Shown one piece after another: positions 22,135-62,355 of a stretch of DNA of 64,000 nucleotides; the stretch's first letter is position 1, and each line of letters opens with the position of its first letter. Under the pieces are notes generated by a model that was not told where the DNA came from, did not search any database, and saw only the letters and a list, made by a program, of their open reading frames with translations. The position numbers and the translations under genes are program-made. Origin of the DNA: a candidate division WWE3 bacterium UBA1379 (lineage in GTDB: Bacteria > Patescibacteriota > WWE3 > UBA101185 > UBA10185); contig DBRB01000019.1 in NCBI GenBank assembly GCA_002305475.1, positions 56,022 to 120,021 on the forward strand. The letters are read 5' to 3'.

Positions 22135-24723
22135 CTATTGCCTACCGTGGCAGTTCTTATACTTTTTACCACTACCGCACGGACACGGATCATTACGCCC
22201 AACTTTCTCTTTACTAGAAACCACACTCTCTACTTTTATTTCCCTACCGGCAGGATCCAACACTTTTACCGGATTGGTTGAAGCCGCCTGCATTTCCTCC
22301 GCTACACCTGTTTCAATTTCTCCATGCTGATAACTAGCATCAGCAGGTATTTGAAGTTTTCTCTTATCCAGTGTCTGTTCGAGCTCAGAAGCATCAACTT
22401 TCTGGATATTCTGAAGCTGGTCTAATCTTTCCCCGATTTCTCCATAGATTTTTGCAATTAGAATTTCAAAGTTTTCATGACCTTCTCTCTTATATTCCAC
22501 CATCGGGTCACGCTGGGCATAACCCCTTAACCCGATACCCTCTCTTAAGTGATCCATATCCACCAGATGCTGCATCCATAAAACATCAACCACTCTTAAA
22601 CTGACATGGGAGACAATATTCAGCCATAAGTCTTTACCCAGTCTTTCGGATAACTCATTCCATCTGTCATTCCCAAAATCGGAATTCTGATTCAGTTTCT
22701 GCAAAAACCAGTTTTCGTGTGTTAAGTCCCCTTCTCCCAGTTCCAGAATTCTTCTTCTTAGTTTATAAACAACATCTCTATGAACATTTATCACGTCATC
22801 CATTTCCACAACTTGTTTTCGTCTGTCAAAGTTAAACCCCTCAACTTTTCTCTGAGCATTCTCAATTGCCCGGCTTACTATTCCCGCTTCCAGTGGCGTA
22901 TTCTCATCCATACCAAAACGGTTCATGATGTTTTCCACCTGAGCTCCACCGAATATTCTCATCAACTCATCCTGAAGTGAGATATAGAATCTGGAAGAAC
23001 CGGGATCTCCTTGTCTTCCTGAACGTCCACGCAATTGATTGTCTATTCGTCTGGATTCATGTCTTTCAGTTCCGATCACATGCAAACCTCCAGCTTCCCT
23101 TACTTCTTCCTGCTCTTTTGGATCAGCAGGATCTCCTCCTAAAATAATATCCACCCCTCTACCTGCCATATTGGTGGATACAGTCACTGAACCTTTTCGA
23201 CCAGCCTGAGCAATAATCAATGCTTCCTTTTCATGATTTTTTGCATTTAATATTTCATGGGGAACATTTCTTCTTTTTAGGAGCTCATGTAACAGTTGGG
23301 ATTTTTCTACTGATGTTGTACCCACCAAAACCGGCTGTCCCACTTCATGCCTTTCCACAATTTCATCCGCTACCGCTCTGAATTTTGCAGCTTCTGTTTT
23401 ATACACCAGATCATTCAAATCTTTTCGAGAAGTGGGTTTATGTGTGGGTATTGCCACCACATCTAATTTATAAATCTTGTAAAACTCTTCCGCTTCCGTC
23501 ATTGCCGTACCGGTCATGCCAGCAAGTTTGGAATACATTCTGAAGTAATTCTGATAAGAGATTTCCGCCAGGGTTTTTGATTCCTGCTGAATCTCCACCC
23601 CTTCTTTTGCTTCTATTGCCTGATGGAGGCCATGTGAATATCTGTTAGACGGTAATAACCGACCGGTGAATTGATCTATAATTACCACCTTTCCGTCCTT
23701 AACTACATAATCCTTGTCTTTTTCATATAACGCCTGAGCAATCAGAGCCTGCTCAATCAAATGCACCATTTCAAAATCCTGTTCATAAAGATTTCCCACA
23801 CCAAGCATTTTTTCTACTCTTCTCACACCAAGATCAGTAAGTGTGGCATTACGGAATTTTTCATCCACATCATAATCCGTTCCTTTTAATAATGTGCGGA
23901 CAATGTTATATGCCTGATGATATCTGTCAGAAGCTTTAGCATCTGAGGTGGAAATAATCAGCGGAGTTCTAGCTACATCAATTAAGATAGAATCAACTTC
24001 ATCAACAATAGCAAAATTATGAACACCCCATTCCCCTCTCGGATTAGTCTGAACCATATCTTTGAGTCGGTGAGTCATATTATCGCGAAGATAATCAAAA
24101 CCAAATTCATGATTTGTACCGTATACAATATCGCACTGATAAGACTGTTGTCTTGGCACTTCCCTCAAATGAATTGCGTATTCATCCTGAAATTCCTGAC
24201 CTTCATATAATGGATCATAGAGAAAAGATCTTTCCTGCATAATTACCCCAACATGCAGACCTAGGTAATCATATAAAGGACCCATCCATCCCGCACCATG
24301 TCTGGACAGATAATCATTAGGAGTAACCAGGTGAACACCATTTCCGGTGAGTGCATTTAGATATAATGGAAGAGTAGCAGTTAAAGTTTTTCCTTCACCG
24401 GTTTTCTGTTCAGCAATTTTACCCTGATGCAATACAATACCCGCCATCAGCTGAACATCAAAATGTCTCATATGCAGAACTCGTTTACTAGCTTCTCTAA
24501 CCAGAGCAAAAGCTTCAGGCAAGATTTTATCCAGATACTTTTTCTGCTCCTCATCATTAAGTTCTTTCAGGTCGCTTTGCCATTTATTAGTTTTCTCCTT
24601 GATATCTTCCTCAGATAATTCAGATATCAAAGATTCAAAAGAATTTATCTTTTCCACAATCGGGCTAAGCCTACTTATTTGTTTTTCGTTTGAGTCAAAA
24701 AGGTTTTTGAACAAATTAACCAT
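22135..24723 (-). CDS. secA: Preprotein translocase ATPase SecA (start taken at internal ATG 24721-24723; the ORF extends to 24840)
   Basis: DEAD-like Walker A (…MKTGEGKTL…). SecA preprotein cross-linking and helical scaffold regions. C-terminal zinc-binding CPCGSGKKYKNCHG. The N-terminus MVNLFKNLFDSNEKQ matches the typical SecA start. Confidence 0.95.
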   Translation of the reverse strand: MVNLFKNLFDSNEKQISRLSPIVEKINSFESLISELSEEDIKEKTNKWQSDLKELNDEEQKKYLDKILPEAFALVREASKRVLHMRHFDVQLMAGIVLHQGKIAEQKTGEGKTLTATLPLYLNALTGNGVHLVTPNDYLSRHGAGWMGPLYDYLGLHVGVIMQERSFLYDPLYEGQEFQDEYAIHLREVPRQQSYQCDIVYGTNHEFGFDYLRDNMTHRLKDMVQTNPRGEWGVHNFAIVDEVDSILIDVARTPLIISTSDAKASDRYHQAYNIVRTLLKGTDYDVDEKFRNATLTDLGVRRVEKMLGVGNLYEQDFEMVHLIEQALIAQALYEKDKDYVVKDGKVVIIDQFTGRLLPSNRYSHGLHQAIEAKEGVEIQQESKTLAEISYQNYFRMYSKLAGMTGTAMTEAEEFYKIYKLDVVAIPTHKPTSRKDLNDLVYKTEAAKFRAVADEIVERHEVGQPVLVGTTSVEKSQLLHELLKRRNVPHEILNAKNHEKEALIIAQAGRKGSVTVSTNMAGRGVDIILGGDPADPKEQEEVREAGGLHVIGTERHESRRIDNQLRGRSGRQGDPGSSRFYISLQDELMRIFGGAQVENIMNRFGMDENTPLEAGIVSRAIENAQRKVEGFNFDRRKQVVEMDDVINVHRDVVYKLRRRILELGEGDLTHENWFLQKLNQNSDFGNDRWNELSERLGKDLWLNIVSHVSLRVVDVLWMQHLVDMDHLREGIGLRGYAQRDPMVEYKREGHENFEILIAKIYGEIGERLDQLQNIQKVDASELEQTLDKRKLQIPADASYQHGEIETGVAEEMQAASTNPVKVLDPAGREIKVESVVSSKEKVGRNDPCPCGSGKKYKNCHGRQ

Positions 24724-25032
24724 AACGTTTTGCATTATATCACTAATAAGTTTAGGGTTTAACCTAGTTCCACCTGTTTTTTGCTGATAAATCCTAACTA
24801 ATAAATGCAACAGGCATTGAATTATTAGATTAAATAACATGTTTTAGGAATAAACCTGGGTTAATCCTTGGAAATCCAGATGTTAAAACATATTATTTTA
24901 AGTTTGATGTAATCCATAAAAATCGAACACAAAAACTATTTATACGACAGCATTTATTGCATGCAATAAATGCTGTTAAATAAACCTTGTATTAGTAAGT
25001 AATAAAGGGATAGGACTAGGATAAACCCGAAT

Positions 25033-25842
25033 TTAGAGCAAAATAATAAGTAATACGGCTAAAGCCACACGATAAAAGATAAAAGGATATAAGCTTCTGC
25101 TTTTTAAGATAGACATTAGTATTCTGAAAGCAACAATTCCGCTTAGAAAACTGGATAGAAATCCGATTAATATCATACCCAGGTTACCGATAGTAAAATC
25201 ACTGACATTACCTATTAACTGATAAATTCCTGCTCCCAATATGATCGGTACAGACATCAAAAAAGAAAATCTGGCTGCGGTTTCCCTGTTCATCCCCGTA
25301 ATCATACCTCCCGAGATAGTAGAACCGGATCTGGAAAATCCTGGGAACAAAGCCAGGCACTGAAAAAATCCGATAATGATACCTTTACCCAGTGACAGGT
25401 ATTCCGCTTTCTTAACTCTTTTATACTGGATTTCGGCGATAACCATAAGCATACTGCCCAAAAGCAGAAACTCAATTACACTTACCGTATCCCTGAATAC
25501 TGTTTCAAAGATATCCTCAAACAGAAAACCGATAACCGCTGCGGGTATCGTACCCAATAATAATGAGATAGCGGTCAACCCATCATGATCATAGTTTTTT
25601 AAGTTAAGCTGGTTTTTTGATAAACATGATATTAATGAGAGTGTGAGTTTTTTCAGATCTTTAAAGAAATAAACAATCACTGCCAGAGCTGTTCCTAAAT
25701 GAAGGGTCGTATCAAAAAACAACGGCTGCTGCTCCCAGTTAAATATCTGAGGAAAAATTATTAAATGTCCTGAAGAAGATATGGGTAAAAATTCTGTAAG
25801 TCCCTGGACTATTCCCAGGGCCAGTGCCTGAAAAACGTTCAC
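25033..25842 (-). CDS. uppP: Undecaprenyl-diphosphatase
   Basis: 269 aa. 8 TM. GLTEFLPISSSGHL and …SRSGSTISG… signature motifs of BacA/UppP. Confidence 0.9.
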   Translation of the reverse strand: MNVFQALALGIVQGLTEFLPISSSGHLIIFPQIFNWEQQPLFFDTTLHLGTALAVIVYFFKDLKKLTLSLISCLSKNQLNLKNYDHDGLTAISLLLGTIPAAVIGFLFEDIFETVFRDTVSVIEFLLLGSMLMVIAEIQYKRVKKAEYLSLGKGIIIGFFQCLALFPGFSRSGSTISGGMITGMNRETAARFSFLMSVPIILGAGIYQLIGNVSDFTIGNLGMILIGFLSSFLSGIVAFRILMSILKSRSLYPFIFYRVALAVLLIILL

Positions 25843-26535
25843 TTAGCTCACCCTCCCATAAATCAAAATGTTGTCCGAATTTGTTCTTCCCGCTATTGTC
25901 AAAGTGTCAACATTATCAAAAAATTGCTGAACGTTCTCAATAAATTCATTCACATCATCCTGATGTTTGGACAGATATAGTCTGTTGAATACAGCCAATC
26001 CACCCGGCATAAGCATTTTTTTCAGTGAAGCAAAAAAATTCCCGGAGTTACCAAGATCCGGATATGTTTCTCCACAGAACACATCCACAATTACGGTCTG
26101 AAAGGAGTGAAGTTTCAAATCATATTTTTCCGGTTCAACAATCACTCTACAGGCATCCTCACATATAATTCTATGATTAGGAATTTCATCAATCTTGAAA
26201 AATCCCTTGGCGATATCAATCATCACCTTGTCGATTTCCACACTGACAATTCTGATGCCGGGAAAAGCACGGGAGATTAGATGCTGCATAGTTCCTCCTG
26301 CCAGACCAAGGATTAAGATACTGTTTAATTCCGGCATCTGTTCTTTTAATAGTTCTACCATTCTCCCAAACACAATCTTTTTTGCAGTATTGGAATCCCA
26401 GCTGACGGACTGTACTACACCATTGGCTACAAGTTTTAAGGTCTGGCCTACCTGCCAAACCTCAACATTTCCGTTATATTGTGAATTTGCCTGAAATATT
26501 ACTTTGGGTATCTTGAGGTTATCAAAAATACTCAT
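25843..26535 (-). CDS. Spermidine-synthase-like SAM-dependent aminopropyl/methyl-transferase (short form)
   Basis: 230 aa. ILILGLAGG (GGGDGG-like), VEIDKVMIDIAK (VEID.VI), VIVDVF…LKKMLMPGGLAV blocks resemble the SpeE fold. Lacks the N-terminal tetramerisation domain. Confidence 0.55.
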   Translation of the reverse strand: MSIFDNLKIPKVIFQANSQYNGNVEVWQVGQTLKLVANGVVQSVSWDSNTAKKIVFGRMVELLKEQMPELNSILILGLAGGTMQHLISRAFPGIRIVSVEIDKVMIDIAKGFFKIDEIPNHRIICEDACRVIVEPEKYDLKLHSFQTVIVDVFCGETYPDLGNSGNFFASLKKMLMPGGLAVFNRLYLSKHQDDVNEFIENVQQFFDNVDTLTIAGRTNSDNILIYGRVS

Positions 26536-26544
26536 GCTAATATC

Positions 26545-27819
26545 CTAACCCTTGCGTGCAATTTTTTCCATTCCAATATATTTCTGCAGTACCTCCGGCA
26601 CCATAATCGAGCCATCCTCCTGCTGATAATTCTCCATTACAGCAGCCATTAAACGGGGTGTAGCCGCCACCGTATTGTTTAATGTATGGACATATTTTAT
26701 TTTCCCGTTTTTCGTTTTATATCTGATGTTTAATCTTCTGGACTGGAAATCCAAAAAGTATGAATCGGAATGTGTTTCCCGATATTTATTCTGAGACGGG
26801 AACCAAGTTTCAACATCGTATTTCTTTCTCTGTCCGGCACCCATGTCTCCGCTACACATTAAAAGAACCTGGTAGGGAAGTTTCATACCCTGAAGAATTG
26901 ACTCCACATATCCGAGCATATTTTCATGCCACTGTCTGGATATTTCCTCATCAGCAGGAACTAGTACTACCTGTTCCACTTTATTAAACTGGTGAATTCG
27001 GAAAATTCCCCTTGTATCTTTACCGTGACTGCCAACTTCTCTTCTAAAACAAGGACTGATTCCCACCATCTTTATCGGAAGATCTTTCTCATCCAGCACC
27101 TCACCGGCATAATACGATGTTACCGGGACTTCAGCGGTTCCGATTAATGCCATTCCATCCTGTGTTCGGTAATGATCTTCCTCTCCCCAAGGGAAATATC
27201 CTGTGCCTGTAAAAAATTCAGGTTTAACCATCCAGGGAACAGTTACAGGTTCAAAACCCTGCTGCATCATAAAATCAAGAGCGTATCTTAGTATTGCCTG
27301 TTCCAGAAGGACTGCTTCATTCTTCAAAAAATATCCTCTGAAACCTCCGATTTTTGCTCCTCGTTCGGTATCGATTAAATTAAGGGATATTCCCAACTCA
27401 AGGTGATCCTTTGGCGTGAATGTGAAATTGTGCGGCTCCCCAACCGTACGAACTATCTTGTTACCTTCTTCATTTTCTCCATACGGAACATCCGAAGCGG
27501 GAGGGTTTGGTACCCATAGCATCGTTTCATCAATCTGGACTTTAAGATTCTTTAATTCCTCTTCCAACCTATTTAATTCGTTTTTTACTTCTGTTGCTTC
27601 CTGAATCAGCTTCTCCCTTGCATTATCATCTACTTTTGATATGTTTTCAGATAGCTGATTTCTTAAAGCGCGATGGGTTTCCACTTGTCTTAGAGTATCT
27701 ACATAGGATTTATCTAATTCCAGTAATTTATCAATATCTACTGTGGAGGACAGTTGTTTATCGGCAATAGCTTTTTTAACTAAATCCGGGTTTTCTCTTA
27801 TATATTTAATGTCCAGCAT
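26545..27819 (-). CDS. serS: Seryl-tRNA synthetase
   Basis: 424 aa. N-terminal coiled-coil arm. Class II motifs (…FRRE…, …GSGLAVGRTL-like…, YDVETWFP…). Confidence 0.93.
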   Translation of the reverse strand: MLDIKYIRENPDLVKKAIADKQLSSTVDIDKLLELDKSYVDTLRQVETHRALRNQLSENISKVDDNAREKLIQEATEVKNELNRLEEELKNLKVQIDETMLWVPNPPASDVPYGENEEGNKIVRTVGEPHNFTFTPKDHLELGISLNLIDTERGAKIGGFRGYFLKNEAVLLEQAILRYALDFMMQQGFEPVTVPWMVKPEFFTGTGYFPWGEEDHYRTQDGMALIGTAEVPVTSYYAGEVLDEKDLPIKMVGISPCFRREVGSHGKDTRGIFRIHQFNKVEQVVLVPADEEISRQWHENMLGYVESILQGMKLPYQVLLMCSGDMGAGQRKKYDVETWFPSQNKYRETHSDSYFLDFQSRRLNIRYKTKNGKIKYVHTLNNTVAATPRLMAAVMENYQQEDGSIMVPEVLQKYIGMEKIARKG

Positions 27820-33276: not shown

Positions 33277-33864
33277 ATGAAAAAAATCATTGCAGGGTAT
33301 GTAATTCTGATTTGTCTGCTGATTGCATCCCTGAGCGTAACCTATGCGGCATTCAGCGATAAAGGTAAATATACCGGATCAACATTTAATGTGGCGACTA
33401 CGGATCTTAAACTTCTGAATGATATTACACTGGGTACGGACAGCGGGAATCTTGTTGACGAAAAACCGGGACCGACTTTTAACAATGTGACATCGGATTG
33501 GTGGGCGGACTATCCGATTAAGATTTATAACAATGCATCTACGGCTCTTGATCTAATCTCTTATGCCAACTATACAACAGCGAATGATCCGAGAAATCTC
33601 AGAGAATCAATTTACTGTGAAATTTTCGAATGGAATGACAATAATGCCAATGGTATTGCAGAAACCGAAGAAATCGGTAATTCAGTGGGATCCAACACCA
33701 TACTGAGGTGGAAAAATGACGGACAGCCGATCGGCATAATAAATATGGGGGAAGTTAAAGGATATATCTTAAGATTCTGGACAACCAGCACCTTTTCATC
33801 AACCAATCAAGGTGAAAGAGCAGTTTTTGATTTTGAGTTTCATGCAATCGGAAAATCCAGTTAA
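33277..33864 (+). CDS. Secreted protein with a SipW-cognate-class (TasA/camelysin-type) signal peptide
   Basis: 195 aa. N-terminus MKKIIAGYVILICLLIASLSVTYAAFSD…TFNVATTDLKL fits the AAFxD…F…GTLDL pattern of the TasA/CalY family. No other domain recognised. Confidence 0.5.
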   Translation: MKKIIAGYVILICLLIASLSVTYAAFSDKGKYTGSTFNVATTDLKLLNDITLGTDSGNLVDEKPGPTFNNVTSDWWADYPIKIYNNASTALDLISYANYTTANDPRNLRESIYCEIFEWNDNNANGIAETEEIGNSVGSNTILRWKNDGQPIGIINMGEVKGYILRFWTTSTFSSTNQGERAVFDFEFHAIGKSS

Positions 33865-33977
33865 TATTTATAACAATGAAAAGCATCCTGTCTGTTTGGG
33901 CGGCAGGCAGGGTGTTTTTCCCGCTTCCATAGTTTTTTTATTTAGCTTCCGTTATAAAAATCTGATATGCTTTAAAC

Positions 33978-36617
33978 ATGACAAGACTGCCCGAAAAAAT
34001 TCTTTTTTTCCTTAACTGGTGGGCTGTTCACGCTCCTAAAAGATTATATGCAATCGGTAAAAGAGCGGTAGTCTTAATCAACAACAACATTTCTTTTACT
34101 TTAAACCTCAGATTACTTTTTACCCCTATCTTCGGAGATTATACAAAGACTGGACGAATTATTGGATTTATCTTCAGATTAACTTCAGTATCTGCCAGTC
34201 TGATTTTCCTTCTTATATTATGGATAGTATCCCTTCTGCTTCCCATAATCTGGTGGATTCTGCCGTTTTTTGGAGCCTTTTACTTTAAACTCTGGATAAT
34301 ACCTCTGATAATTTTTGCGTTTTTGATCTTTTTCGTGGCAAAGGAAAACACACCAGCTAAAAAAGTGAAAGAAGTTTCAGAAAACAATCCCGAGAAAACC
34401 TTCAGGCCTACCGCATATCACTATCTTATGCGTCTAAGATCCGAAGCCGCATCGTGTATACCTGCACTTCTAAAAGAACCGCAGATCAAGTATCTGTTGG
34501 AAAAAGCGGAGCTGATGAATGAGGTAGTATGTAAGACAAACGGAAATTCGCAATTCTGTCAAATTACCAAGGATTTCCCCCAGGCATTAAGTAGTGTTAA
34601 ATCCATAAATACAGAAAACCTGGCTAAAACCGCATACAATTACGCAAAATCCAACCAAAGCAGATATATTGAATTGGAACATATCTTTTTGGCAGTACTG
34701 GACAATATCCCAGAAATTGAAAATATTCTATCAACAGTCAATTCTAAATTGGAATACGTTGAAAGAACATCCGAGTGGCTGGTATCGGAAAGAGAAGCGG
34801 CAGCAAAAAGATATTTCTGGCAGGAGGATTACCAGCTTCCGCTAATGGGGGGAATCGGAAAAACCATGACCGGAAGAGTAACTCCGATTCTGGATTCATA
34901 TTCCGAAGACTTTACCAAACAGGTAAAAAACGGACGTCTGAAAAAAATCATCGGCAGAGAGGAAGAAATAAAAAAAGTTGCTGAAATCCTCAGTAGTTCT
35001 GCAAGAAATGTGCTGCTTATCGGCGAACCGGGAAGCGGAAAAACCTCCATTGTCAGAGGTCTGTCTCATAAGATTGTAGGCGGAGTTCAGTACCCTGCCT
35101 TAAAATTTAAACGCCTGGTCAGTATGGATACCGGATCATTAATTGCGGGAACAAAGTCCGCCGGAGATATATCAGATCGTATAAATAGGATTTTTGATGA
35201 AGTAAAAAAATCGGGGGATATCATCGTTTTTATAGATGAAATACATTCACTGGTCACTGCATCTACCGATTCTGGATCAGAAGCTTCCAACATATTCTCT
35301 CTTCTGGAAAAACAACTGCAAAGCAATATCCAGTTTATCGGAGCTACAAACGTAGAAAATTACCGCAAATATATTGAACCAAACGGTGCATTCTCCAGAC
35401 TTTTTGAAAGAGTAGATATCCCCGAATCCCCCCCGCAGGATACACTGGAAATATTAAAATTTGTGACAAAACATACAGAAAATGAAAATCATATTTCCGT
35501 CACCTACCCCGCTCTGTTAAAAATCATAGAACTTTCGGAGAAACTGATTCATGAAAGAGTACTACCAGATAAAGCCATAGATATTCTAAACAGGACAGCT
35601 TCCGCGGTTACACACGCACATAAATATCTTACATCCGAGGATGTCGCCCGGGAAATATCACATGTCACTCATATCCCTGTAACAACTATTACCTTAAATG
35701 AATCGGAAAAACTTCTACGCATCGAAGATGAGTTAAGGGAGCATGTCATCGGGCAGGATGAAGCCATTATTCAGATCGGGGCGGCACTAAAACGAGCCAG
35801 GGCAGGAATTAGAAATGAGAAAAAACCTATTGCCAGCTTTCTTTTTGTGGGTACCACCGGAGTAGGAAAAACGGAAACGGCCAAAGCTTTAGCAAGAGTA
35901 TATTTTGACGATGAAAAAGCGATGATCAGACTGGATATGTCCGAATATCAGCAGGATGACAGTATTAACCGCCTAATCGGAACTCCTAACGGCCAAAGCA
36001 AAGGAATATTAACCGAAGCGGTAAGAACCAAACCATTTGCCTTAATTCTTCTGGATGAAATTGAAAAAGCCAACCCGAATATCCTTTTAACCTTCTTACA
36101 AGTTTTGGATGACGGGCGTTTGACGGATTCCTCAGGCAGGGTCATTGATTTCACTAACACTATCATTATTGCCACTAGTAATGTCGGTACTCGTGGTATC
36201 CAGGAAATATCCGCTAGGGGAGGTGCATTTGATGAAATGTCTGCTTCCGCGATGAAAGAAATCCAAAACCGGTTTGCTCCTGAATTTCTAAACCGTTTCA
36301 ATGGAATTATTGTCTACAAACCGCTGGATAAAGACTCTGTAACCCAGATTGCAAATCTGATGCTGAATAAGGTAAAAAAAATGGCGGTGGAAAAAAGAAT
36401 CAATGTCTCTTTTAAAATGGAACTGGTTACTGAACTGGTCAAACAGGGATACAATCCGGAATGGGGAGCTAGACCCCTGGCGAGAGTGATTGAAAATACG
36501 GTGGAAACTTATCTGGCTATGAAGCTTTTGGCAAATGAAATAAAAATGGGAGACACAATCGAGCTGGGTCTGGAAGCAATTAACGGTAAATCACCAAATC
36601 AAACCGGACAGATGTAA
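33978..36617 (+). CDS. Membrane-anchored two-ring Clp/Hsp100-family AAA+ ATPase (ClpC/ClpB-like)
   Basis: 879 aa. Residues ~1-130 hold 3-4 hydrophobic helices. Clp_N-like repeat (…LEHIFLAVLD…). D1 Walker A GEPGSGKTS. D2 Walker A GTTGVGKTETAKALA and Walker B/sensor LILLDEIEKANPNILLTFLQVLDDGRLTDSSGRVIDFTNTIIIATSN. Short middle linker. No obvious IGF/IGL ClpP-docking tripeptide. Confidence 0.8.
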   Translation: MTRLPEKILFFLNWWAVHAPKRLYAIGKRAVVLINNNISFTLNLRLLFTPIFGDYTKTGRIIGFIFRLTSVSASLIFLLILWIVSLLLPIIWWILPFFGAFYFKLWIIPLIIFAFLIFFVAKENTPAKKVKEVSENNPEKTFRPTAYHYLMRLRSEAASCIPALLKEPQIKYLLEKAELMNEVVCKTNGNSQFCQITKDFPQALSSVKSINTENLAKTAYNYAKSNQSRYIELEHIFLAVLDNIPEIENILSTVNSKLEYVERTSEWLVSEREAAAKRYFWQEDYQLPLMGGIGKTMTGRVTPILDSYSEDFTKQVKNGRLKKIIGREEEIKKVAEILSSSARNVLLIGEPGSGKTSIVRGLSHKIVGGVQYPALKFKRLVSMDTGSLIAGTKSAGDISDRINRIFDEVKKSGDIIVFIDEIHSLVTASTDSGSEASNIFSLLEKQLQSNIQFIGATNVENYRKYIEPNGAFSRLFERVDIPESPPQDTLEILKFVTKHTENENHISVTYPALLKIIELSEKLIHERVLPDKAIDILNRTASAVTHAHKYLTSEDVAREISHVTHIPVTTITLNESEKLLRIEDELREHVIGQDEAIIQIGAALKRARAGIRNEKKPIASFLFVGTTGVGKTETAKALARVYFDDEKAMIRLDMSEYQQDDSINRLIGTPNGQSKGILTEAVRTKPFALILLDEIEKANPNILLTFLQVLDDGRLTDSSGRVIDFTNTIIIATSNVGTRGIQEISARGGAFDEMSASAMKEIQNRFAPEFLNRFNGIIVYKPLDKDSVTQIANLMLNKVKKMAVEKRINVSFKMELVTELVKQGYNPEWGARPLARVIENTVETYLAMKLLANEIKMGDTIELGLEAINGKSPNQTGQM

Positions 36618-36703: not shown

Positions 36704-37711
36704 ATGCACGAAGAACAGAAACAAAGATTGGAAAAACTGAAAAATTCTCTTTTTATTGATGAAAAAAGGATTAAAATCCAGGAATTACAGGAAAGAATGA
36801 ATGATGAAAGCACCTGGAAAAACTGGGAAGAAGGTCAAAAAGTAGCACAGGATCTGGCAGGTCTGCAAAAAGACGTGGAAGACTATGAAATGCTGGAACT
36901 GTTGGCGGAAGAAGGTAACCCCGAGGAATTCGATAAAGAATTAAAAAAAGTAGAGCAGAAAACTTTCCTGTCGGGAAAACATGACAAAGGAAACGCCTTG
37001 TTGTCCATTCATGCCGGTCAGGGAGGAACAGAAGCGATGGACTGGACTGCGATGCTATTGAGAATGTATCTGATGTATGCGGAAAAGAAAGGCTGGAAAA
37101 CCACAGAAATAAACAGCCAAGCCGGTGAAGAAGCAGGTCTGAAAACCGTAACGATAGAAGTTGAGGGTCCTTATGCGTACGGATTTTTGAAAAATGAATC
37201 GGGAGTTCACAGACTGGTCAGACAATCCCCTTTTAATGCCAATGATTTAAGACAGACTTCTTTTGCGTTGGTGGAAGTAATCCCGGTAGTGGATGAGTCC
37301 ATTGATATTGAGATCAAAGATGAGGATATTGAATTTGAAGCATTCAGAGCGGGAGGACACGGGGGTCAGAATGTTAATAAGGTTTCCACTGCAGTAAGAA
37401 TTAGACATAAACCAACCGGGATCGTGGTGGAAAATCAGACAGAGCGATACCAGCTGAAAAATCGTGAAAAAGCTATGCAGGTTCTGAAATCAAAACTATA
37501 TGCTTTGGAACTGCAGAAAATGGAAGAGGAAAAAAGAAAGCTGAAGGGTGACTACAAAGCACCGGGTTGGGGTAATCAGATCAGAAATTACGTTTTACAC
37601 CCTTATAAACTGGTCAAAGATCTAAGAACAGATCTGGAAAGTGTTCATCCGGAAGAAATATTAAACGGTAATCTGGATGAATTTGTGGATGCTGAAATAA
37701 GACTGCGGTAA
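36704..37711 (+). CDS. prfB: Peptide chain release factor 2 (no programmed frameshift)
   Basis: 335 aa. SPF tripeptide (…RQSPFNAN…) and GGQ motif (…[10 protein letters not shown]…). The ATG has an AGGAG RBS upstream. No CTT TGA C frameshift site found upstream. Confidence 0.88.
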
Positions 37712-45037: not shown

Positions 45038-46126
45038 CTACTTAGGTAGATAATACTTCAGATTCTCCTGCGTTAAATATACTCCCTGTGATTTTCCGCT
45101 CACAATTTCCAAAGCTACCTTTCTACAGATTGCTTCCAGCGTCCTTCCCAAACTTCTTATACCACTGTCATATCCAAAAGGTCTAACAATTCCCGGCCAT
45201 AGATTAGGATCAATCTGCAGCTCACCTTCCTTCAGTCCGGTCCGTTCATATATTTTAGGGAGTAAATAATCTCTGGCAATCACGATTTTTTCATCATCGG
45301 TATAGGAAGGCATTTTAATCACTTCCATACGATCCATCACCGGTGTAGAGATCGTTCCCGTATTGTTTGCCGAACAGATGAATAATACCTCGGATAGATT
45401 AACCGGAAAATCCACATAATGATCCCGGAATTCCGGGTTCTGGTTAGGATCAAGTATTTCCAAAAGTGTAGCCATAACATCAGCTCTCAAACCGGTTTCC
45501 CCGCTGGCTTTTTCAATTTCATCCAGAAGAATTAAGGGGTTACGCACTTTTGTTTTTATCAGTGCTTTGATAATCTGACCCGGTTCAGCTTCAGGATAAA
45601 CTTTGCTTCTTCCTCTTAATTCCAGGGTAGATCCGATAGCACCGATTGATATACGGACAAATTCCCTACCCAAGGCTTCCGCAACCGACATCGCCAGCGT
45701 AGTTTTACCAATACCCTGAAGTCCTACCAGAAGCAAGATTGGTGTTTTTGCCGTAATATCCCCCCCTCTTTCTTTGATCAACTTAAGAGTAGCCAGATAT
45801 TCAATAATACGATCCTTAACCCACTCCATCCCGAAATGGTTTTTATCCAGTATCTTTTTAGCTTCTTCTAAATCCAAAGTATCTTCAGTACGTGTTACCC
45901 AGGGAATGGAAGTGACAACATCGATATAACGGGCTAAAGTATCAAATTCCTCCGCATAATGCCCGATTTGCGCCATACGGTTTAAACGCTCAAGCATCTG
46001 ATTTAGACGCTCTCTTAAAAGATCAGGCATCCCTTCAGTCTGTTCTACTTTGTCGGATAAACTTTTCAGTTCTTTAAATAAAAAGTCATCTTGTTTTTGA
46101 ATATCAATAGTTTTTGTATCTGTCAT
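45038..46126 (-). CDS. Lon-like AAA+ ATPase module lacking the LAN N-domain and the S16 protease domain
   Basis: 362 aa. Walker A GLQGIGKTTLAMSVAEALGREFVRISIG (compare Lon [24 protein letters not shown]). Walker B NPLILLDEIEKAS. Sensor-2 region SLGRTLEAICRKVA (compare Lon RNLEREI.K.CRK). The ORF ends right after the AAA+ alpha-helical lid, so no Ser-Lys protease domain follows. Confidence 0.7.
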   Translation of the reverse strand: MTDTKTIDIQKQDDFLFKELKSLSDKVEQTEGMPDLLRERLNQMLERLNRMAQIGHYAEEFDTLARYIDVVTSIPWVTRTEDTLDLEEAKKILDKNHFGMEWVKDRIIEYLATLKLIKERGGDITAKTPILLLVGLQGIGKTTLAMSVAEALGREFVRISIGAIGSTLELRGRSKVYPEAEPGQIIKALIKTKVRNPLILLDEIEKASGETGLRADVMATLLEILDPNQNPEFRDHYVDFPVNLSEVLFICSANNTGTISTPVMDRMEVIKMPSYTDDEKIVIARDYLLPKIYERTGLKEGELQIDPNLWPGIVRPFGYDSGIRSLGRTLEAICRKVALEIVSGKSQGVYLTQENLKYYLPK

Positions 46127-46148: not shown

Positions 46149-47099
46149 CTATTGGATAACCAGCTCATTGTATCCCGTACTTAGGATAATTTCGAGATCC
46201 TGTTTAGCTCTGTCTGATCCATATTTCTCAACTATATTAGAAAGATCCTTTTTTATATCATCATTAAAAAACATTATCAGTAAATGCCCTTCCCGAGGTA
46301 GTACCGCTTTAGCTGTTGCATACTTTTGGTTTAAACCAAGATTCGTTTCCTTCTTTTGACCTGCTGATTCTGACTGCTCAATTAATGCATCGTTTGTTGC
46401 CATTAATAATTTATCTTCTATCACCTTATGCTTAAAACTTCCCTCAAATCCTTCCAGCAATTCAATAATTTTCTTATCCACACCATCGGTTTCTTTTAGC
46501 AAAGTTACAGCACCCCATTCCAGATTCCCTTCATTCCTTAAAGCATAGATAACAAACGGGTCATCCAATAATAGATTAAAGAGTTTAAGATAAACTGCTT
46601 CTTCTGTTGTATTCAGGTAAGTATTGGAAAAGTCTTTATAGCTGTGACCCTCAATATAAAGCTCGGCATCTTTAGGCACAAAGTCTAAAAGACTATGCGT
46701 ATTAAAAATTTTGGAAGGCCATGTGTAACCAAACTGCAGAGTATTGGGAACAGCAGCTACATTGTTTTCCATAATAATCCGATTGATTCTCACGGACTGG
46801 CTGTTACTGCGGTAAATGAGAACAATATTGATCAGAACAGATATTCCCGCCACAATAAGAATCAGGCTTCTTTTCAGATCCTGGTTGTCCAGAATAAACC
46901 CCAGATGCTTTTGAATCTGCTGACTGATCATACCTGAAAAAAAGGACTTACCGGATGACTGAGGAATATATCGTGTGATCTGTGTAATCACAGGTTGTCT
47001 TACCAGATTGGCATCAAGAGGATTGGCACAGCTAGCACAAAAGTAGTATTCATTATTACCTAAAATTGATTTGCACTTGGGGCAGACTCTTACAGACAT
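46149..47099 (-). CDS. Zinc-ribbon / single-TM / extracytoplasmic-domain protein of unknown function
   Basis: 316 aa. N-terminal CPKC…CASC zinc ribbon. One TM (SLILIVAGISVLINIVLIY). ~220-aa C-terminal domain. Lies 23 bp upstream of the Lon-like gene (likely operon). Confidence 0.55.
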   Translation of the reverse strand: MSVRVCPKCKSILGNNEYYFCASCANPLDANLVRQPVITQITRYIPQSSGKSFFSGMISQQIQKHLGFILDNQDLKRSLILIVAGISVLINIVLIYRSNSQSVRINRIIMENNVAAVPNTLQFGYTWPSKIFNTHSLLDFVPKDAELYIEGHSYKDFSNTYLNTTEEAVYLKLFNLLLDDPFVIYALRNEGNLEWGAVTLLKETDGVDKKIIELLEGFEGSFKHKVIEDKLLMATNDALIEQSESAGQKKETNLGLNQKYATAKAVLPREGHLLIMFFNDDIKKDLSNIVEKYGSDRAKQDLEIILSTGYNELVIQ

Positions 47100-50839: not shown

Positions 50840-51730
50840 ATGCAGGATAGATTTACCTATAAAGAATTCTTGAAAAAGTATAAAGATGATGACATCTGTC
50901 TTGAGGAAATCAAAAATCTGCGCTTCCCTGGTGGCATTACCTGCTCTTCCTGCAAAAAGATCACCAACCACTACCGTATAAAAAGCAAAAAAGTCTATTC
51001 ATGCGAATTTTGTGGAACTCAGGTGAGTCCTTTAGCAGGAACAATCTTCCATAAATCCTCCACGTCATTACAAGACTGGTTTATGGCAATCTACCTTATG
51101 ACTCAAACGAGAAGCGGCACCTCTGCTAAGCAACTACAGCTCATGCTTGGTGTTACCTATAAAACAGCGTGGAGAATGTACAAACAAATTAGAACCCTCA
51201 TGGCTGAAAATTCCGTCACTCCTCTTAATGGAGATGTTGAAATAGATGAAACATACATAGGCGGAGAGGGAATGAATCGGAGATTTAAACCACATTTTAA
51301 CGAAATCCCCAAAGAAGCTGTTATGGGCATGCTCCAAAGGGGTGGAAAAACATATCTTAAACATATTAAAGGAACTGGCAAATGGTATTTGATCGAACAA
51401 ATCAAAACTCATGTTGACCCAGTTGCAAGGCTTATCACCGATGAACTCGCTGCTTACAGAAATCTACCCAAACATGGTTACACGCTTCACGATGTTGTAA
51501 ACCACTCAGAAACGTATGTGGCTGGAGGTATACACACCAACAATATCGAAAACGTGTGGTCTATTATCAAGCGAGGAATATACGGAGTCTACCGAAATGT
51601 TTCGAAAAAATACCTGCAAGCCTATATTGACGAATACGCCTTTAGGTTTAACTACCGCAATCAAGATGAAAATATGTTCTACACACTTCTCAGACAAGTG
51701 GTTAACGTGAGGTTGGTTTCAGTTTTTTAA
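50840..51730 (+). CDS. IS1595-family (ISXO2-like) DDE transposase with N-terminal zinc ribbon
   Basis: 296 aa. CSSCKK…CEFCG zinc ribbon. DDE-domain region. C-terminal …KYLQAYIDEYAFRFNYRNQ matches the IS1595-family …YL(D/Q)E(F/Y).FR(F/Y)N.R signature. ~80-85% identical to ORF 61462..62355. Confidence 0.8.
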   Translation: MQDRFTYKEFLKKYKDDDICLEEIKNLRFPGGITCSSCKKITNHYRIKSKKVYSCEFCGTQVSPLAGTIFHKSSTSLQDWFMAIYLMTQTRSGTSAKQLQLMLGVTYKTAWRMYKQIRTLMAENSVTPLNGDVEIDETYIGGEGMNRRFKPHFNEIPKEAVMGMLQRGGKTYLKHIKGTGKWYLIEQIKTHVDPVARLITDELAAYRNLPKHGYTLHDVVNHSETYVAGGIHTNNIENVWSIIKRGIYGVYRNVSKKYLQAYIDEYAFRFNYRNQDENMFYTLLRQVVNVRLVSVF

Positions 51731-51854: not shown

Positions 51855-54800
51855 TTATTTATTCTTCTTTTTTAATTTTACAACTATAACCACCAGAATA
51901 ACTATAACAAAAGTTAAGATTCCGATAATTCCATATGATAATGGTGAGATTGAAAGTGGTTTTTCTTGGACGGTAACATTAAGAGCAAACTCCTTAACAT
52001 CTCCCTCTAGATTTATTGATTGTTCACCTACAAATCTGCCGTAGGCAATAATGACTCGGTGGTCACCTGGTTCTACATTATAAAATTCTGCGATACCATC
52101 GCCATCTGTGGTAGTTTCTTGGACTTTTGAGTGCATTGTAACTTTGGCTCCGACTACTGCATCGCCTTTAGTATCAGATACTTTTACTTTGACTTTATAT
52201 CCTTCAGCCTTATCAATAATTTCCGTAGACTTTTCCTGATCCTCTTGACTGTTATTACAATTTATTTTGAGTTCCCAACCACTATTGAGATTATTTGATG
52301 ACCCAAGTGAAGGGTACTTGCCTTTGTTTTGTTCAATTATCTCCTTGTATTTATTGCCGTCTCCCAGTTTCTCCTGAGCTATCGACCACAAACTATCACC
52401 TGATTTGACTGTATATGTTTGACAAGAATTAGCTTGAGTTGACTTCTCTTCTGCAATTGATGTTAATTCAGAATTTGTTATCTCTAAATTGTTTGCAGAA
52501 ACATAACCCCAGGTTTTGGCTGAGATTTCTTGGGACCAATTACCAGCGGCACAGCCATTACCGGCCCTAATCCTAAAGTAGTATCTTGTATTAGGTGAAA
52601 GAGACTTAACCAAATATTCTCTTGTGCCTTTATCTCCAATTGTTGTTGCTCCCCAAATATATTTCCCTGGTTCGGTGCCAAACTCCAGGGCATAGTGTTC
52701 GACTGGGTCACTAGCAGAACCAAATTGCAATAAAATAGAATCGGTGCCTCTGGCAGTTGCTCCCCAGAGTAGCGGTGTACTTCCTGGCGCAGTTTTATCA
52801 CAACTAGGGGCGGAAGCAGAAGAATTACTGCTTGAGGAAGAATCTGAACTGTTGGCATTGATCGTAACTGTGTTTATCGTATCTGTACCACTAGAGGAAT
52901 AGGCGGACGAATTTTCTGCCAGGTCAGCCGATTTGACTCGAAAATACCAGGTTCCATCAGCAAGAGCAGTAGAATGGGTATATGAATTTGTTGTTGAAGT
53001 GTCTGTATTTGAATCACAACCTGTAAAACCAGAGTTAGAACACCACTGAACTGAATAGGGGGAAGTAGACAAACCGGAACCGGTATCAGTTGATGCTGTC
53101 CAAGACCAGGTTGGGGTATTGTCAGTGGTTAATGAGGCAGTCGATGGAGTTCCGGGAGTGGTAGGTGCAGTTGTATCTAAGGTAAACGCTCCGGTATTGT
53201 AGGATGAACCCTGATTTGTTAACGAGTCTCTATACTGCACATATACTGTCCTTGATCCTTCAGTAGTTCCACAGCCGTAAGCTGCAGCTCCCGGCTTGAT
53301 ATCAAAATCAGTTTTGGGAGTAGCATACGCTTCCCAGGCAGTCCAGGTGGCATTGTCGCAAGAAAAGCGCATCTGCGCTCCGGTTACACCCACCCCCGCA
53401 TCGGCAATGGTTAATGCAAGGGAGGGAGTATTATCGTTGGTTGGATCAGTTGCCTGAATGATTGTCCCTGTCGGTCCGGTCGTATCAAAATTTGTAGAAT
53501 CACTGACAATACCTGATTCATTTCCCAGTGCATCCTTCAGTTTTGCGCTGATTGTCTTTGCTCCGTTTATTATGCTGCAGCCTGTTGCTCCTGTAGTGAT
53601 GTCAAAAGAGGAAATGGTATCAGAGTATGCCATCCAGGCAGACCAGTTAGTGCCGCCGTTACAGGAGAAAGCAGCATGCGTCGGTGTACCTGTCTGGGTT
53701 ATCGCAATTGAAGGAGTAGAATCATTGGTGTATCCTCCAGTGTCTGTAATAGCAATAGAGGTTAAGGCAGGTCCTGTGACGTTCCAGGTTACAGAATTAT
53801 CTGAAGTTGTTGATGCATTATTAGGATTGCCGGCTGCGTCATGGGCTTTATCTGCAGCAACACTTACCGTAACTGTTCCTGATCCGGTCATTCCCGATAC
53901 TGCCACATTGTACGTCGTTCCTGATCCCGTAACTGTCGCTGTGGTTGCCCCGGCTGTCCCTCCTAAAGTAACATCACCGGTGGTAAAGTCAGAAACAGAC
54001 TCTGAAAATTCAACAGTAAAATTAATCGGTGAGACATTGGTTGGATCTGACTGTCCCACAGCCTGGTTGATGGTTACATCAGGATTAGTAGTATCAACCG
54101 TCAGTGTCCCTTCTGATTCTTCACTTTCATTACCTGCCAAATCTATGGCTTTGACAAAGAAGTTGTAAATGCCTTCTGCCAGGTTGGTAACCACATTAGT
54201 TAATGCTGTTGTCCCTGAGGTAATTGCTGACCCTGTTGTCCTCCAGGCATACTGCAATACACCTGACACTGCATCGGTCGCCGCCGACCAGGTCCAAGTT
54301 TGCGAAGTCTGGTTGGTTGGAGAGGCAGGTGTAGGTAAAGGAGTGCCAGGTGTACTTGGCGCTCCGGTATCCACTTTGACAGTATTAGCTCCAGTGTAAG
54401 TTGCTTGTTGAGATAGATTATCTGAAACAAGGTGGCGATATTGATAGCAGTTTCCTGAACTAACATCAGTATCTATTAAATTTGGGTAGCTGCCGCTAGG
54501 AGAGATAGCTGAAAAGCTACCGTAAATAGTACATATTCCTAAAATTAAGGGCGCAGATCTTCTCTGAATAATTCTTGATGAGGTATTTACTCCGGAGCCT
54601 GTGCCGTCTGAACCGTCTGCAACAGTTAAAGAAACGGAAGCTATCGTATAGTAACCATCAGTGTAGGTCATTGATCCTCCTGTCGGAGCAGTCGTGTCAT
54701 AAACTGTTGAATCAGAAGCAGTAGATGACTCATTACCTGCTAAGTCCTTCAGCTTTGCAGTTATCGCTTTTGATCCATCGGAAGACGTACAGCCTGTTGC

Positions 54801-61461: not shown

Positions 61462-62355
61462 ATGCAAGACAGATTTACCTACAAAGAATTCCTGAAAAAA
61501 TATAAAAATGATGATATCTGTCTTGAAGAAATAAAAAATCTTCGTTTTCCCGAGGGTATTAACTGTTCTTCCTGCAAAAAGATCACTAATCACTACCGGA
61601 TTAAAAGTAAAAAGGTCTACTCTTGTGAATTTTGTGGTACTCAGGTGAGTCCTCTGGCTGGGACGATTTTCCATAAATCTTCAACCTCTTTACAAGACTG
61701 GTTTATGGCGATCTACCTCATGACCCAAACAAGAAGTGGTACATCATCAGCTAAGCAGCTACAACGCATGCTCGGTGTTACCTATAAGACAGCATGGAGA
61801 ATGTACAAGCAAATTCGCACCATCATGGCTGAGAATTCAGTTACTCCACTAGATGGAGAGGTTGAAATAGATGAAACTTATATTGGTGGAAAAGGGATGA
61901 ACAGGAGGTTTAAGCCACATTTCAACGAAATTCCAAAAGAAGCAATAATGGGGATGCTGCAACGAGGTGGTAAAACGTATCTCAAACACATCAAAGGAAC
62001 TGGAAAATGGTATTTGATTGAGCAAATCAAAACCCACGTTGATCCAATTGCAAGACTAATCACTGATGAACTGGCGGCATATAGAAATCTACCTCAACAT
62101 GGCTATATGCTTCATGATGTAGTAAATCACTCAGAAACTTATGTTGTAGGTGATATTCACACCAACAATATTGAGAATGTCTGGTCGATTATCAAAAGAG
62201 GCATTTATGGAGTTTATCGGAATGTTTCCAAGAAATATCTACAAGCCTATATCGATGAATACGTATTTAGGTTCAACTGCCGCAATCAAGATGAAAATAT
62301 GTTTTACACACTACTGAGACAAGTAGTTAACGTGAGGATGGTTTCGGTTTCTTAG
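61462..62355 (+). CDS. IS1595-family (ISXO2-like) DDE transposase, paralog B
   Basis: 297 aa. Collinear with and ~80-85% identical to 50840..51730. Same zinc ribbon and …YIDEYVFRFNCRNQ C-terminus. Confidence 0.8.
   Translation: MQDRFTYKEFLKKYKNDDICLEEIKNLRFPEGINCSSCKKITNHYRIKSKKVYSCEFCGTQVSPLAGTIFHKSSTSLQDWFMAIYLMTQTRSGTSSAKQLQRMLGVTYKTAWRMYKQIRTIMAENSVTPLDGEVEIDETYIGGKGMNRRFKPHFNEIPKEAIMGMLQRGGKTYLKHIKGTGKWYLIEQIKTHVDPIARLITDELAAYRNLPQHGYMLHDVVNHSETYVVGDIHTNNIENVWSIIKRGIYGVYRNVSKKYLQAYIDEYVFRFNCRNQDENMFYTLLRQVVNVRMVSVS

Follow-up and report, generated by a model that had tools for sequence, protein, structure and literature searches.

What does a Clp/Hsp100-type ATPase do when it carries a membrane module and has lost the residues with which its relatives grip polypeptides? 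The question is raised by a gene lying in 64,000 nucleotides of contig DBRB01000019.1 (assembly GCA_002305475.1, forward-strand positions 56,022 to 120,021) from the candidate division WWE3 bacterium UBA1379, an ultra-small member of the Patescibacteria; this whole stretch is called the window below, and coordinates are counted from its first letter. Textbooks present the Hsp100/Clp proteins as the model of polypeptide threading, powered by ATP and carried out by pore-loop tyrosines; to our knowledge, all characterised members are soluble. The family of the 879-residue protein (aa, amino acids or residue numbers) encoded at 33978..36617 appears to break both rules, yet its second AAA+ ring (D2) is under strict purifying selection. 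The gene and its ATPase domains were located as follows.

33978..36617, + strand: putative membrane-anchored Clp/Hsp100-like ATPase, complete gene, 879 aa (ATG-to-stop open reading frame, ORF; Pfam AAA, AAA_lid_9, AAA_2, ClpB_D2-small)
34935..35621, + strand: AAA+ ring 1 (D1), with Walker A GEPGSGKT (aa 349-356), Walker B VFIDEIH (417-423) and sensor-1 GATN (455-458) (Pfam AAA, AAA_lid_9)
35745..36317, + strand: AAA+ ring 2 (D2), with Walker A GTTGVGKTE (625-633), Walker B LLDEIEKA (691-698), sensor-1 TSN (733-735) and Arg finger EFLNR (769-773) (Pfam AAA_2)
36324..36563, + strand: C-terminal D2-small domain with sensor-2 GARPLAR (830-836) (Pfam ClpB_D2-small)

The Pfam search gave, all above the gathering cut-offs, AAA at aa 345-481 (90 bits) and AAA_lid_9 at aa 487-577 (46 bits) for D1, followed by AAA_2 at aa 616-775 (180 bits) and ClpB_D2-small at aa 783-862 (74 bits) for D2. 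This tandem arrangement bears out the proposal of the initial annotation that the protein is a double-ring relative of Clp/Hsp100. Meanwhile, the NCBIfam equivalog models stayed far below their cut-offs, with 577 of 1232 bits for ClpB (TIGR03346, in two stretches), 521 of 993 for ClpA (TIGR02639), 450 of 885 for ClpV (TIGR03345), 477 of 1900 for ClpK and 464 of 1900 for ClpG, so that the protein is no equivalog of any of these named proteins. On these scores an assignment to ClpV/TssH of the type VI secretion system, the neighbours being ribosomal, RadC, prfB and FtsK genes, and one to the stand-alone disaggregases ClpK/ClpG were rejected. An FtsH-type protease was rejected as well, as there is no peptidase domain among the Pfam matches and the C-terminus is ClpB_D2-small.

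For a motif census, 144 family members were aligned to segments of Thermus thermophilus ClpB and Staphylococcus aureus ClpC, and the residues were counted per motif. The D2 Walker A lysine, Walker B Asp-Glu pair, sensor-1 asparagine, Arg finger and sensor-2 arginine were each present in 144/144. In D1, Walker A was kept in 141/144 and the Walker B Asp-Glu pair in about 137/144, and the second arginine of the ERRF motif of ClpB was replaced by leucine or another aliphatic residue in about 135/144 (SRLFE, aa 473-477, in the 879-aa protein). D1 therefore keeps both Walker motifs and has lost one of its two trans-acting arginines. Degenerate forms of the D1 Walker B, such as HIPGIH, YLNDF or FAPEIH, and in some cases of Walker A, occur beside an intact D2 in several distant lineages, among them L029 (2982-5492) and the representatives P0041, P0064, P0086 and P0102. 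Such sequences suggest that D1 may have turned into a non-catalytic ring in parts of the family.

The regions in which the two rings differ most from the threading machines are their pore loops.

35145..35168, + strand: D1 pore loop without tyrosine, AGTKSAGD where ClpB/ClpC have AGAKYRGE (gap-free HMMER alignment to ClpB and ClpC)
35979..36005, + strand: D2 pore-loop remnant, GTPNG----QSKG where ClpB has GAPPGYVGYEEGG, the YVGY stretch being deleted (alignment to ClpB and ClpC)

The column of the D1 pore tyrosine (KYRG) was aromatic in 0/144 members and was occupied instead by T (65), S (46), N (15), G (5), E (4), A (3) and others. Four columns of the D2 pore loop (GYVG) were gapped in about 128/144, and where the tyrosine column was filled it held Q, S, E, N or R and never an aromatic residue. 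Both loops contain a lysine, K392 in D1 (a column with Lys or Arg in 98/144) and K675 in D2 (Lys in 84/144, where ClpB has Gly). Replacement of tyrosine by alanine at the pore-loop positions abolishes threading in ClpB, Hsp104 and ClpA. Because both rings are without aromatic pore-loop residues and the M-domain is absent as well (see below), canonical threading of the FtsH or ClpB kind is unlikely. The protein had initially been described as an unfoldase or disaggregase with two complete AAA+ modules. As it stands, the label is not supported, given the same two losses. The modules are complete as far as binding and hydrolysing ATP goes, but incomplete for threading a substrate, as both pore-loop tyrosines are missing.

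The second departure lies at the N-terminus.

33978..34178, + strand: conserved cationic head, aa 1-67, predicted to be cytoplasmic (alignments, charge counts, AlphaFold2 (AF2) model)
34158..34337, + strand: putative hydrophobic helical hairpin, about aa 61-88 and 97-120 (Kyte-Doolittle 19-aa windows up to 2.8)

The head, of about 65 residues, is non-hydrophobic; AF2 modelled it as helices at aa 4-38 and 40-45, with a predicted local distance difference test score (pLDDT) above 85. Its alignments gave the signature W14-W15, P20, L46-x-F48-x-P50-x-F-G53-D54-Y-T-x-x-G59-R60-x-x-G-F-x-x-R67, in which, in fused and stand-alone forms of the module alike, P50 and R67 never vary and conservation of D54 and G59 reaches 90% or more. 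Over the 144 members the head contains a mean of 8.2 K+R against 2.6 D+E. By the Kyte-Doolittle scale, the protein has only two strongly hydrophobic stretches, about aa 61-88 and 97-120; no other part comes close. An 11-residue turn with near-invariant W92 and P96 joins them. This turn is uncharged in 144/144 members and both flanks are positive, the 25 residues past the second helix having a mean of 5.3 K+R. As positive flanks around an uncharged turn follow the positive-inside rule, we infer an N-in/C-in hairpin with the ATPase in the cytoplasm. The AF2 models were confident, with a pLDDT of 83.9 (aa 1-318) and 90.6 (aa 1-132). The module matched no Pfam family, had no relative among the PDB sequences and gave no Foldseek structural match better than E 2.9. 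Whether fused or separate, it appears to be a previously unnamed domain with a clear signature. The N-terminal membrane domain that had been proposed is genuine and conserved; in place of the three or four helices expected there is probably one two-helix hairpin behind the cationic head.

The possibility that this region is an artefactual 5' extension of a soluble protein was answered by the family itself. The 879-aa protein is 100% identical to one NCBI entry (P0110), and a full-length search gave more than 110 full-length orthologues with 48-61% identity and 95-100% coverage. The N-terminal 150 residues are kept, from residue 1 on, in more than 140 homologues at 40-50% identity, together with the invariant residues, and the first internal methionine is residue 151. 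On these two grounds a mis-called start was rejected, and the N-terminal extension stands as a real part of the protein. It should be noted that the family emerged from an exhaustive HMMER search only: a word-indexed search with the N-terminal 316 aa gave one match and a profile of the module gave five, whereas the exhaustive search with aa 1-316 gave 103 cluster representatives at E <= 1e-3. About 45 of the 103 are full length (830-880 aa), with alignments spanning from about aa 5 to aa 314.

About 30 of the 103 representatives are stand-alone module proteins of 97-155 aa matching aa ~7-100. In 4/4 contexts (P0106, P0107, P0108 and P0109) the stand-alone gene lies directly upstream of, or overlaps, a Clp-like gene, and the partner Clp-like products have a transmembrane (TM) segment of their own. 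P0106 (137 aa) overlaps the start of a 930-aa gene with Clp_N, AAA, AAA_2 and D2-small domains; P0107 (118 aa) sits 10 nt upstream of an 836-aa Clp-like gene; for P0108 and P0109 the next gene follows within 0-4 nt, and its product starts with TM segments followed by the N-domain of the family. The split-form product of L031 extends into a 'NRAWTARPTPTLD' linker, and the split-form ATPase of L029, whose D1 Walker B is degenerate, is likewise without the pore tyrosines. Module and ATPase thus appear to be a functional pair, fused in WWE3 and split elsewhere. In L027 (728-1252, a partial gene downstream of P0106) the 930-aa partner opens with a DnaJ-type zinc ribbon (CDRCNG...CSKCEGLG) before its TM segments, which suggests that some family members may carry an extra client-binding element. 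A second, degenerate copy of the head in the split-form ATPases ('P.L...AGR.FVR') was considered and dropped, since the hidden Markov model scored <= 9 bits outside the hydrophobic segment.

Between the hairpin and D1, the protein contains a putative Clp-type N-domain and a linker.

34395..34808, + strand: putative divergent Clp N-terminal domain, aa ~140-277 (AF2 model and Foldseek; Pfam Clp_N borderline)
34809..34916, + strand: family-specific linker into D1, aa 278-313 (alignments)

The N-domain was modelled by AF2 with a pLDDT of about 90, and its top 49 Foldseek matches in the PDB were all N-domains of Clp/Hsp100 proteins (ClpC1, ClpC, the C-terminal domain of ClpC2, Hsp104, ClpB and HSP101), the matches being weak (TM-score 0.5-0.6 on target length, E 0.03-1). 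Pfam found a single borderline Clp_N repeat at aa ~219-242 (20.8 bits, cut-off 20.7). A Cys-x8-Cys beta-hairpin insert, CKTNGNSQFC (aa 185-194, window 34530-34559), was seen in the 879-aa protein and its closest relative P0111 (CIKDSDSTFC) only; it is a gap in most of 32 representatives, and the AF2 pLDDT there is about 57. The linker follows the pattern W281-Q-x-D-[YF]...G-G-[IV]-x-[KR]-x-x-T-G-R-x-T-P-x-L-D. In 24 WWE3 sequences the linker shows no variation at W281, Q282, D284, G292, G299, T302, P303, S309, D311 and T313, and W, D, GG and TP.LD are kept in distant members too. Residues 293-302 are probably flexible, because the pLDDT is below 50 there.

We then turn to the elements by which Clp/Hsp100 proteins are coupled to their partners. 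The ClpB M-domain is the docking site of DnaK, and the half-length M-domain of ClpC binds adaptors such as MecA. According to HMMER alignments with T. thermophilus ClpB and S. aureus ClpC, D1 of the 879-aa protein reaches to about aa 548 and D2 begins near aa 550, with no M-domain between them. ClpB residues ~396-514 are without a counterpart, and the alignment with ClpC is broken, about 60 ClpC residues (~408-468) having no unique counterpart; two aligned stretches were needed for ClpB and for ClpC and one for ClpA. The distance from E421 of the D1 Walker B to K631 of the D2 Walker A is 210 aa, whereas it is about 330 aa in T. thermophilus ClpB. The initial annotation had proposed a short middle linker of the ClpC/ClpA kind. 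A ClpB-type M-domain is indeed absent, but so is the half-length M-domain of ClpC and, given the 210-aa spacing, the linker is ClpA-like.

36180..36296, + strand: segment from sensor-1 to the Arg finger, the site of the IGF/IGL/VGF loop in ClpA, ClpC and ClpX, with no such loop here (alignment)

The ClpP-docking loop is missing as well, as had been noticed at the outset. The region after sensor-1 aligns with ClpB without gaps, whereas ClpC carries nine extra residues, including FAGFGG. The spacing from the sensor-1 asparagine to the Arg finger is 38 aa in 132/144 members, as in ClpB, compared with 47 in ClpC. The tripeptide [ILVM]G[FLM] was found in 1/144 members only, where it is incidental, lying within a helical LLGLL stretch. 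With E. coli ClpP as query, tblastn found no clpP gene in the 64-kb window or in 25 related WWE3 loci of 6-12 kb.

These 25 loci came from a scan of species-representative genomes for the motif FTP[LI]FGDY; all belong to metagenome-assembled genomes (MAGs) of candidate division WWE3 or other Patescibacteria, and as a sample they cover WWE3 and its close relatives only. In most of the loci with enough contig, the tblastn high-scoring segment pairs start at aa 1-14, extend to about aa 866 and have 44-58% identity. The genes are arranged as rpoA-rplQ-rplM-rpsI-HTH-RadC-195aa-Clp-like gene-prfB-(RodZ)-FtsK (HTH, helix-turn-helix). The 879-aa protein is the WWE3 (Katanobacteria) member of the family, and every carrier identified is a MAG of the Patescibacteria (candidate phyla radiation, CPR) or an unclassified 'bacterium' MAG; the breadth of the distant members rests on few labels, 'Patescibacteria group bacterium' and 'bacterium'. 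The orthologues are publicly named 'ClpC' or 'ClpA' (Clp protease ATP-binding subunit), 'AAA family ATPase' or 'hypothetical'.

The gene prfB follows directly downstream in the WWE3 loci and lies downstream or one gene removed in 3/4 distant lineages. The distant orders are secA-gene-prfB-...-ftsE-ftsX-M23 peptidase (L035), gene-Nramp-prfB-...-ftsEX-M23 (L032) and gene-MFS fragment-prfB-...-ftsEX (L034; MFS, major facilitator superfamily); the L033 lineage is without the secA/prfB/ftsEX order. This placement near housekeeping genes of secretion and division is ancient and is not specific evidence of function.

Taking these results together, we favour, with a probability of about 0.5, the reading that the protein belongs to a Patescibacteria-wide, membrane-anchored and ClpP-independent derivative of Hsp100, which is driven by D2, is unlikely to thread polypeptides canonically, and acts in membrane-proximal remodelling. 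The hairpin would anchor the protein in the cytoplasmic membrane, and a hexamer would hold its ATPase rings on the cytoplasmic face, beneath a ring of 12 membrane helices. The D2 ring would be the motor of a machine working without ClpP and without coupling to DnaK. The N-domain and the membrane module could recruit a membrane-proximal client or partner complex, and ATP hydrolysis would then cause a conformational remodelling of that client, in place of processive threading gripped by tyrosines.

Several points weigh against this reading. AF2 and DSSP show aa 57-123 as a single unbroken helix, and therefore the hairpin is derived from the segment length, the Trp/Pro turn and the charge distribution and is not displayed by the model. 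The oligomeric state, the topology and the ATPase activity are all predictions. The loss of the tyrosines is no proof that translocation is lost, since the lysines of both loops could grip another substrate. In p97 the D1 ring and in NSF the D2 ring are without aromatic loops, and the partner ring threads; against this parallel it can be said that here both rings are without them. ClpP or another partner protease may be encoded elsewhere in the genome and dock non-canonically. Finally, the conserved neighbours secA, prfB and ftsEX may reflect an ancient housekeeping gene order only.

A bolder form of the proposal, which we would sooner doubt than assert, is that a threading-free, membrane-integral Hsp100 together with its own small membrane subunit, which WWE3 has as a fusion and other lineages as a separate protein, constitutes a new ATP-driven membrane machine, either a Torsin-like remodeller or a mover of non-protein molecules through or along the 12-helix ring.

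The strongest competitor to membrane-proximal remodelling, though in our view an unlikely one, is a membrane unfoldase or extractase resembling Msp1 or an FtsH without its protease, whose non-aromatic loops would grip more weakly and pull membrane or secretory proteins from the bilayer or from Sec, or which would hand its clients to a separate protease. The Clp unfoldase architecture with a putative N-domain of the substrate-binding type and a D2 that is fully catalytic by its motifs would suit such a role, as would the distant lineages in which the gene lies between secA and prfB, near ftsEX and the M23 peptidase. The split-form partner that opens with the CxxCxGxG zinc ribbon points the same way, this DnaJ-type motif being known to bind unfolded proteins. 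However, none of the 144 members has a pore-loop aromatic in either ring, most have a D2 loop four residues shorter, and the effects of the Tyr-to-Ala replacements mentioned above count against this reading too; furthermore, the ClpP loop is missing, and none of the ~33 loci examined has a protease gene next to the Clp-like gene.

Quite improbable, to our judgement, is a motor for a non-protein and probably anionic polymer or lipid-linked molecule, such as a nucleic acid or an envelope precursor, which the loop lysines would bind and for which the 12-helix ring would be the conduit. The basic residues kept or gained in both loops and the strongly cationic head of the module agree with this idea, and the deletion in the D2 loop should widen the channel. 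CPR bacteria, moreover, depend on importing building blocks. But the argument is one of composition, no domain for nucleic-acid binding or transport is among the Pfam matches, a set of twelve helices whose turn is uncharged makes no evident pore, and no conserved neighbour indicates a particular polymer.

An ordinary soluble ClpC/ClpA with a mis-called start, or a decaying pseudo-enzyme, can be given practically no credence: the public names of the orthologues and the lack of an obvious Shine-Dalgarno sequence before the ATG speak for it, but the conserved first 150 residues, the position of the first internal methionine and the existence of the module as an independent conserved gene contradict a wrong start, the curated cut-offs for ClpA and ClpB are missed by about a factor of two, and the invariant D2 catalytic residues are incompatible with decay.

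The surroundings of the gene in the window are in keeping with the WWE3 loci.

33891..33911, + strand: terminator-like hairpin and T-run between the 195-aa gene and the Clp-like gene (consensus scan, pattern match only)
36704..37711, + strand: prfB (release factor 2), conserved downstream neighbour of the Clp-like family (NCBIfam prfB, 425 bits, cut-off 370)

The order here is rpoA, rplQ, rplM, rpsI, an HTH regulator, RadC, a 195-aa exported protein, the Clp-like gene, prfB, a RodZ-like gene, FtsK and RNase J; SecA, BacA, SerRS, EF-G, EF-Tu and PNPase lie farther off. With this gene content and a GC fraction of ~0.36-0.41 over most of its length, the window has the look of a small Patescibacteria genome. 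The terminator-like hairpin suggests that the Clp-like gene may have a transcript start of its own. In the distant relative L035 (1-5828), the Clp-like gene is immediately preceded by a block comprising SerRS, a spermine-synthase-like gene, BacA and SecA. In the window the SerRS-to-SecA block is found at 22135-27819 (- strand), about 9 kb away and on the opposite strand, which indicates that an ancestral secA-clp-prfB cluster was rearranged here.

The 195-aa protein (33277-33864, + strand) has an N-terminal signal or anchor ending ...SVTYAAFSD, which we take to resemble signals of the SipW/TasA type, and matched nothing in Pfam or NCBIfam. Among WWE3 loci whose upstream sequence is long enough, almost every one has this gene immediately before the Clp-like one; in the window the hairpin at 33891-33911 intervenes. 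A second proteostasis-type ATPase without its protease part is encoded at 45038-46126 (- strand): this 362-aa protein comprises the AAA+ core and lid of Lon only (TIGR00763 positions 255-570 of 795; Pfam AAA and Lon_lid), with neither the Lon N-domain nor the protease domain. Just upstream of it, a 316-aa gene (46149-47099, - strand) had no family match. Two transposase genes of the IS1595 family (50840-51730 and 61462-62355, both + strand) flank a giant ORF of 2916 aa (51855-60605, - strand) with Golvesin_C, GHL15, fn3, LysM and Big_13 domains. The GC fraction is 0.43-0.45 across 52-58 kb, against ~0.36-0.41 in the rest of the window, and the region may have arrived by horizontal transfer as an island of surface-protein genes, or may represent a composite transposon.

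Full-text literature searches found neither a membrane-anchored Clp/Hsp100 nor this family described in CPR bacteria; for TM7x, a generic 'predicted clp protease' only is mentioned (PMC10768705). The AAA+ scaffold is familiar, and what is undescribed is the combination of membrane integration, a fused or split partner module with a signature of its own and the loss of three hallmark elements: pore tyrosines, M-domain and ClpP loop. The database label 'ClpC' therefore probably mislabels an undescribed kind of membrane machine, and reconstructions of metabolism and proteostasis in Patescibacteria are probably led astray by the annotation 'ClpC/ClpA, Clp protease ATP-binding subunit'. The family is conserved across deep branches of this huge and largely uncultured group, and since such minimal genomes retain a gene of 2.6 kb, it is likely to be important. 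The fused or split pair, with its unnamed membrane domain and clear signature, offers a concrete experimental handle. If the non-threading mechanism is true, it would widen the repertoire of the Hsp100 scaffold and provide a bacterial model for Torsin-like ATPases. Should the protein indeed be a new membrane machine, it would be without precedent among Clp/Hsp100 proteins in being membrane-embedded and in lacking aromatic pore loops in both rings.

How, then, does the protein compare with the systems already known? By sequence, ClpB/Hsp104 comes closest (T. thermophilus ClpB, 1qvr, E 3.5e-136); it shares with the protein the two AAA+ rings, a probable Clp N-domain, D2-small, the absence of a ClpP loop and the identical 38-aa spacing from sensor-1 to the Arg finger. 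In contrast to ClpB, the 879-aa protein lacks the M-domain (about 120 aa missing between D1 and D2) and the pore tyrosines, and has the membrane module. ClpA aligns in one uninterrupted stretch (aa 305-865 to ClpA 169-735), with the same 210-aa distance between the Walker motifs and likewise without an M-domain; unlike ClpA, the protein has no IGL loop for ClpP docking and no pore tyrosines, and appears to be membrane anchored. With ClpC it has in common the double ring, a probable N-domain of the ClpC1/ClpC fold and a high similarity (S. aureus ClpC, E 2e-135), whereas the half M-domain, the VGF/FAGFGG loop and the pore tyrosines are absent and ClpC lacks the membrane module.

Among the membrane-bound AAA+ proteins, FtsH and Msp1 have a single ring of the classical AAA clade with an aromatic pore loop, and FtsH also has an M41 protease domain. 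Both FtsH and Msp1/ATAD1 are tethered by N-terminal TM helices, as is predicted here, and the hexamer would likewise face the bilayer; the 879-aa protein differs in its double ring of the Hsp100 type and in the absence of a protease domain and of aromatic pore loops. Torsins, AAA+ proteins of the eukaryotic endoplasmic reticulum (ER) and nuclear envelope, resemble the D2 ring of Clp, carry an N-terminal hydrophobic membrane segment, have no aromatic pore-loop residues and remodel rather than thread. They consist of a single ring in the ER lumen without an Arg finger of its own, which is supplied by LAP1 or LULL1. The 879-aa protein is bacterial, has two rings and keeps the Arg finger of D2 intact. 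The likeness to Torsins is one of features and of a shared AAA+ clade: the predicted hold on the membrane by an N-terminal hydrophobic segment and the pore loops without aromatic residues. On these features, Torsins, rather than FtsH or ClpB, may be the closest working analogy for this protein.

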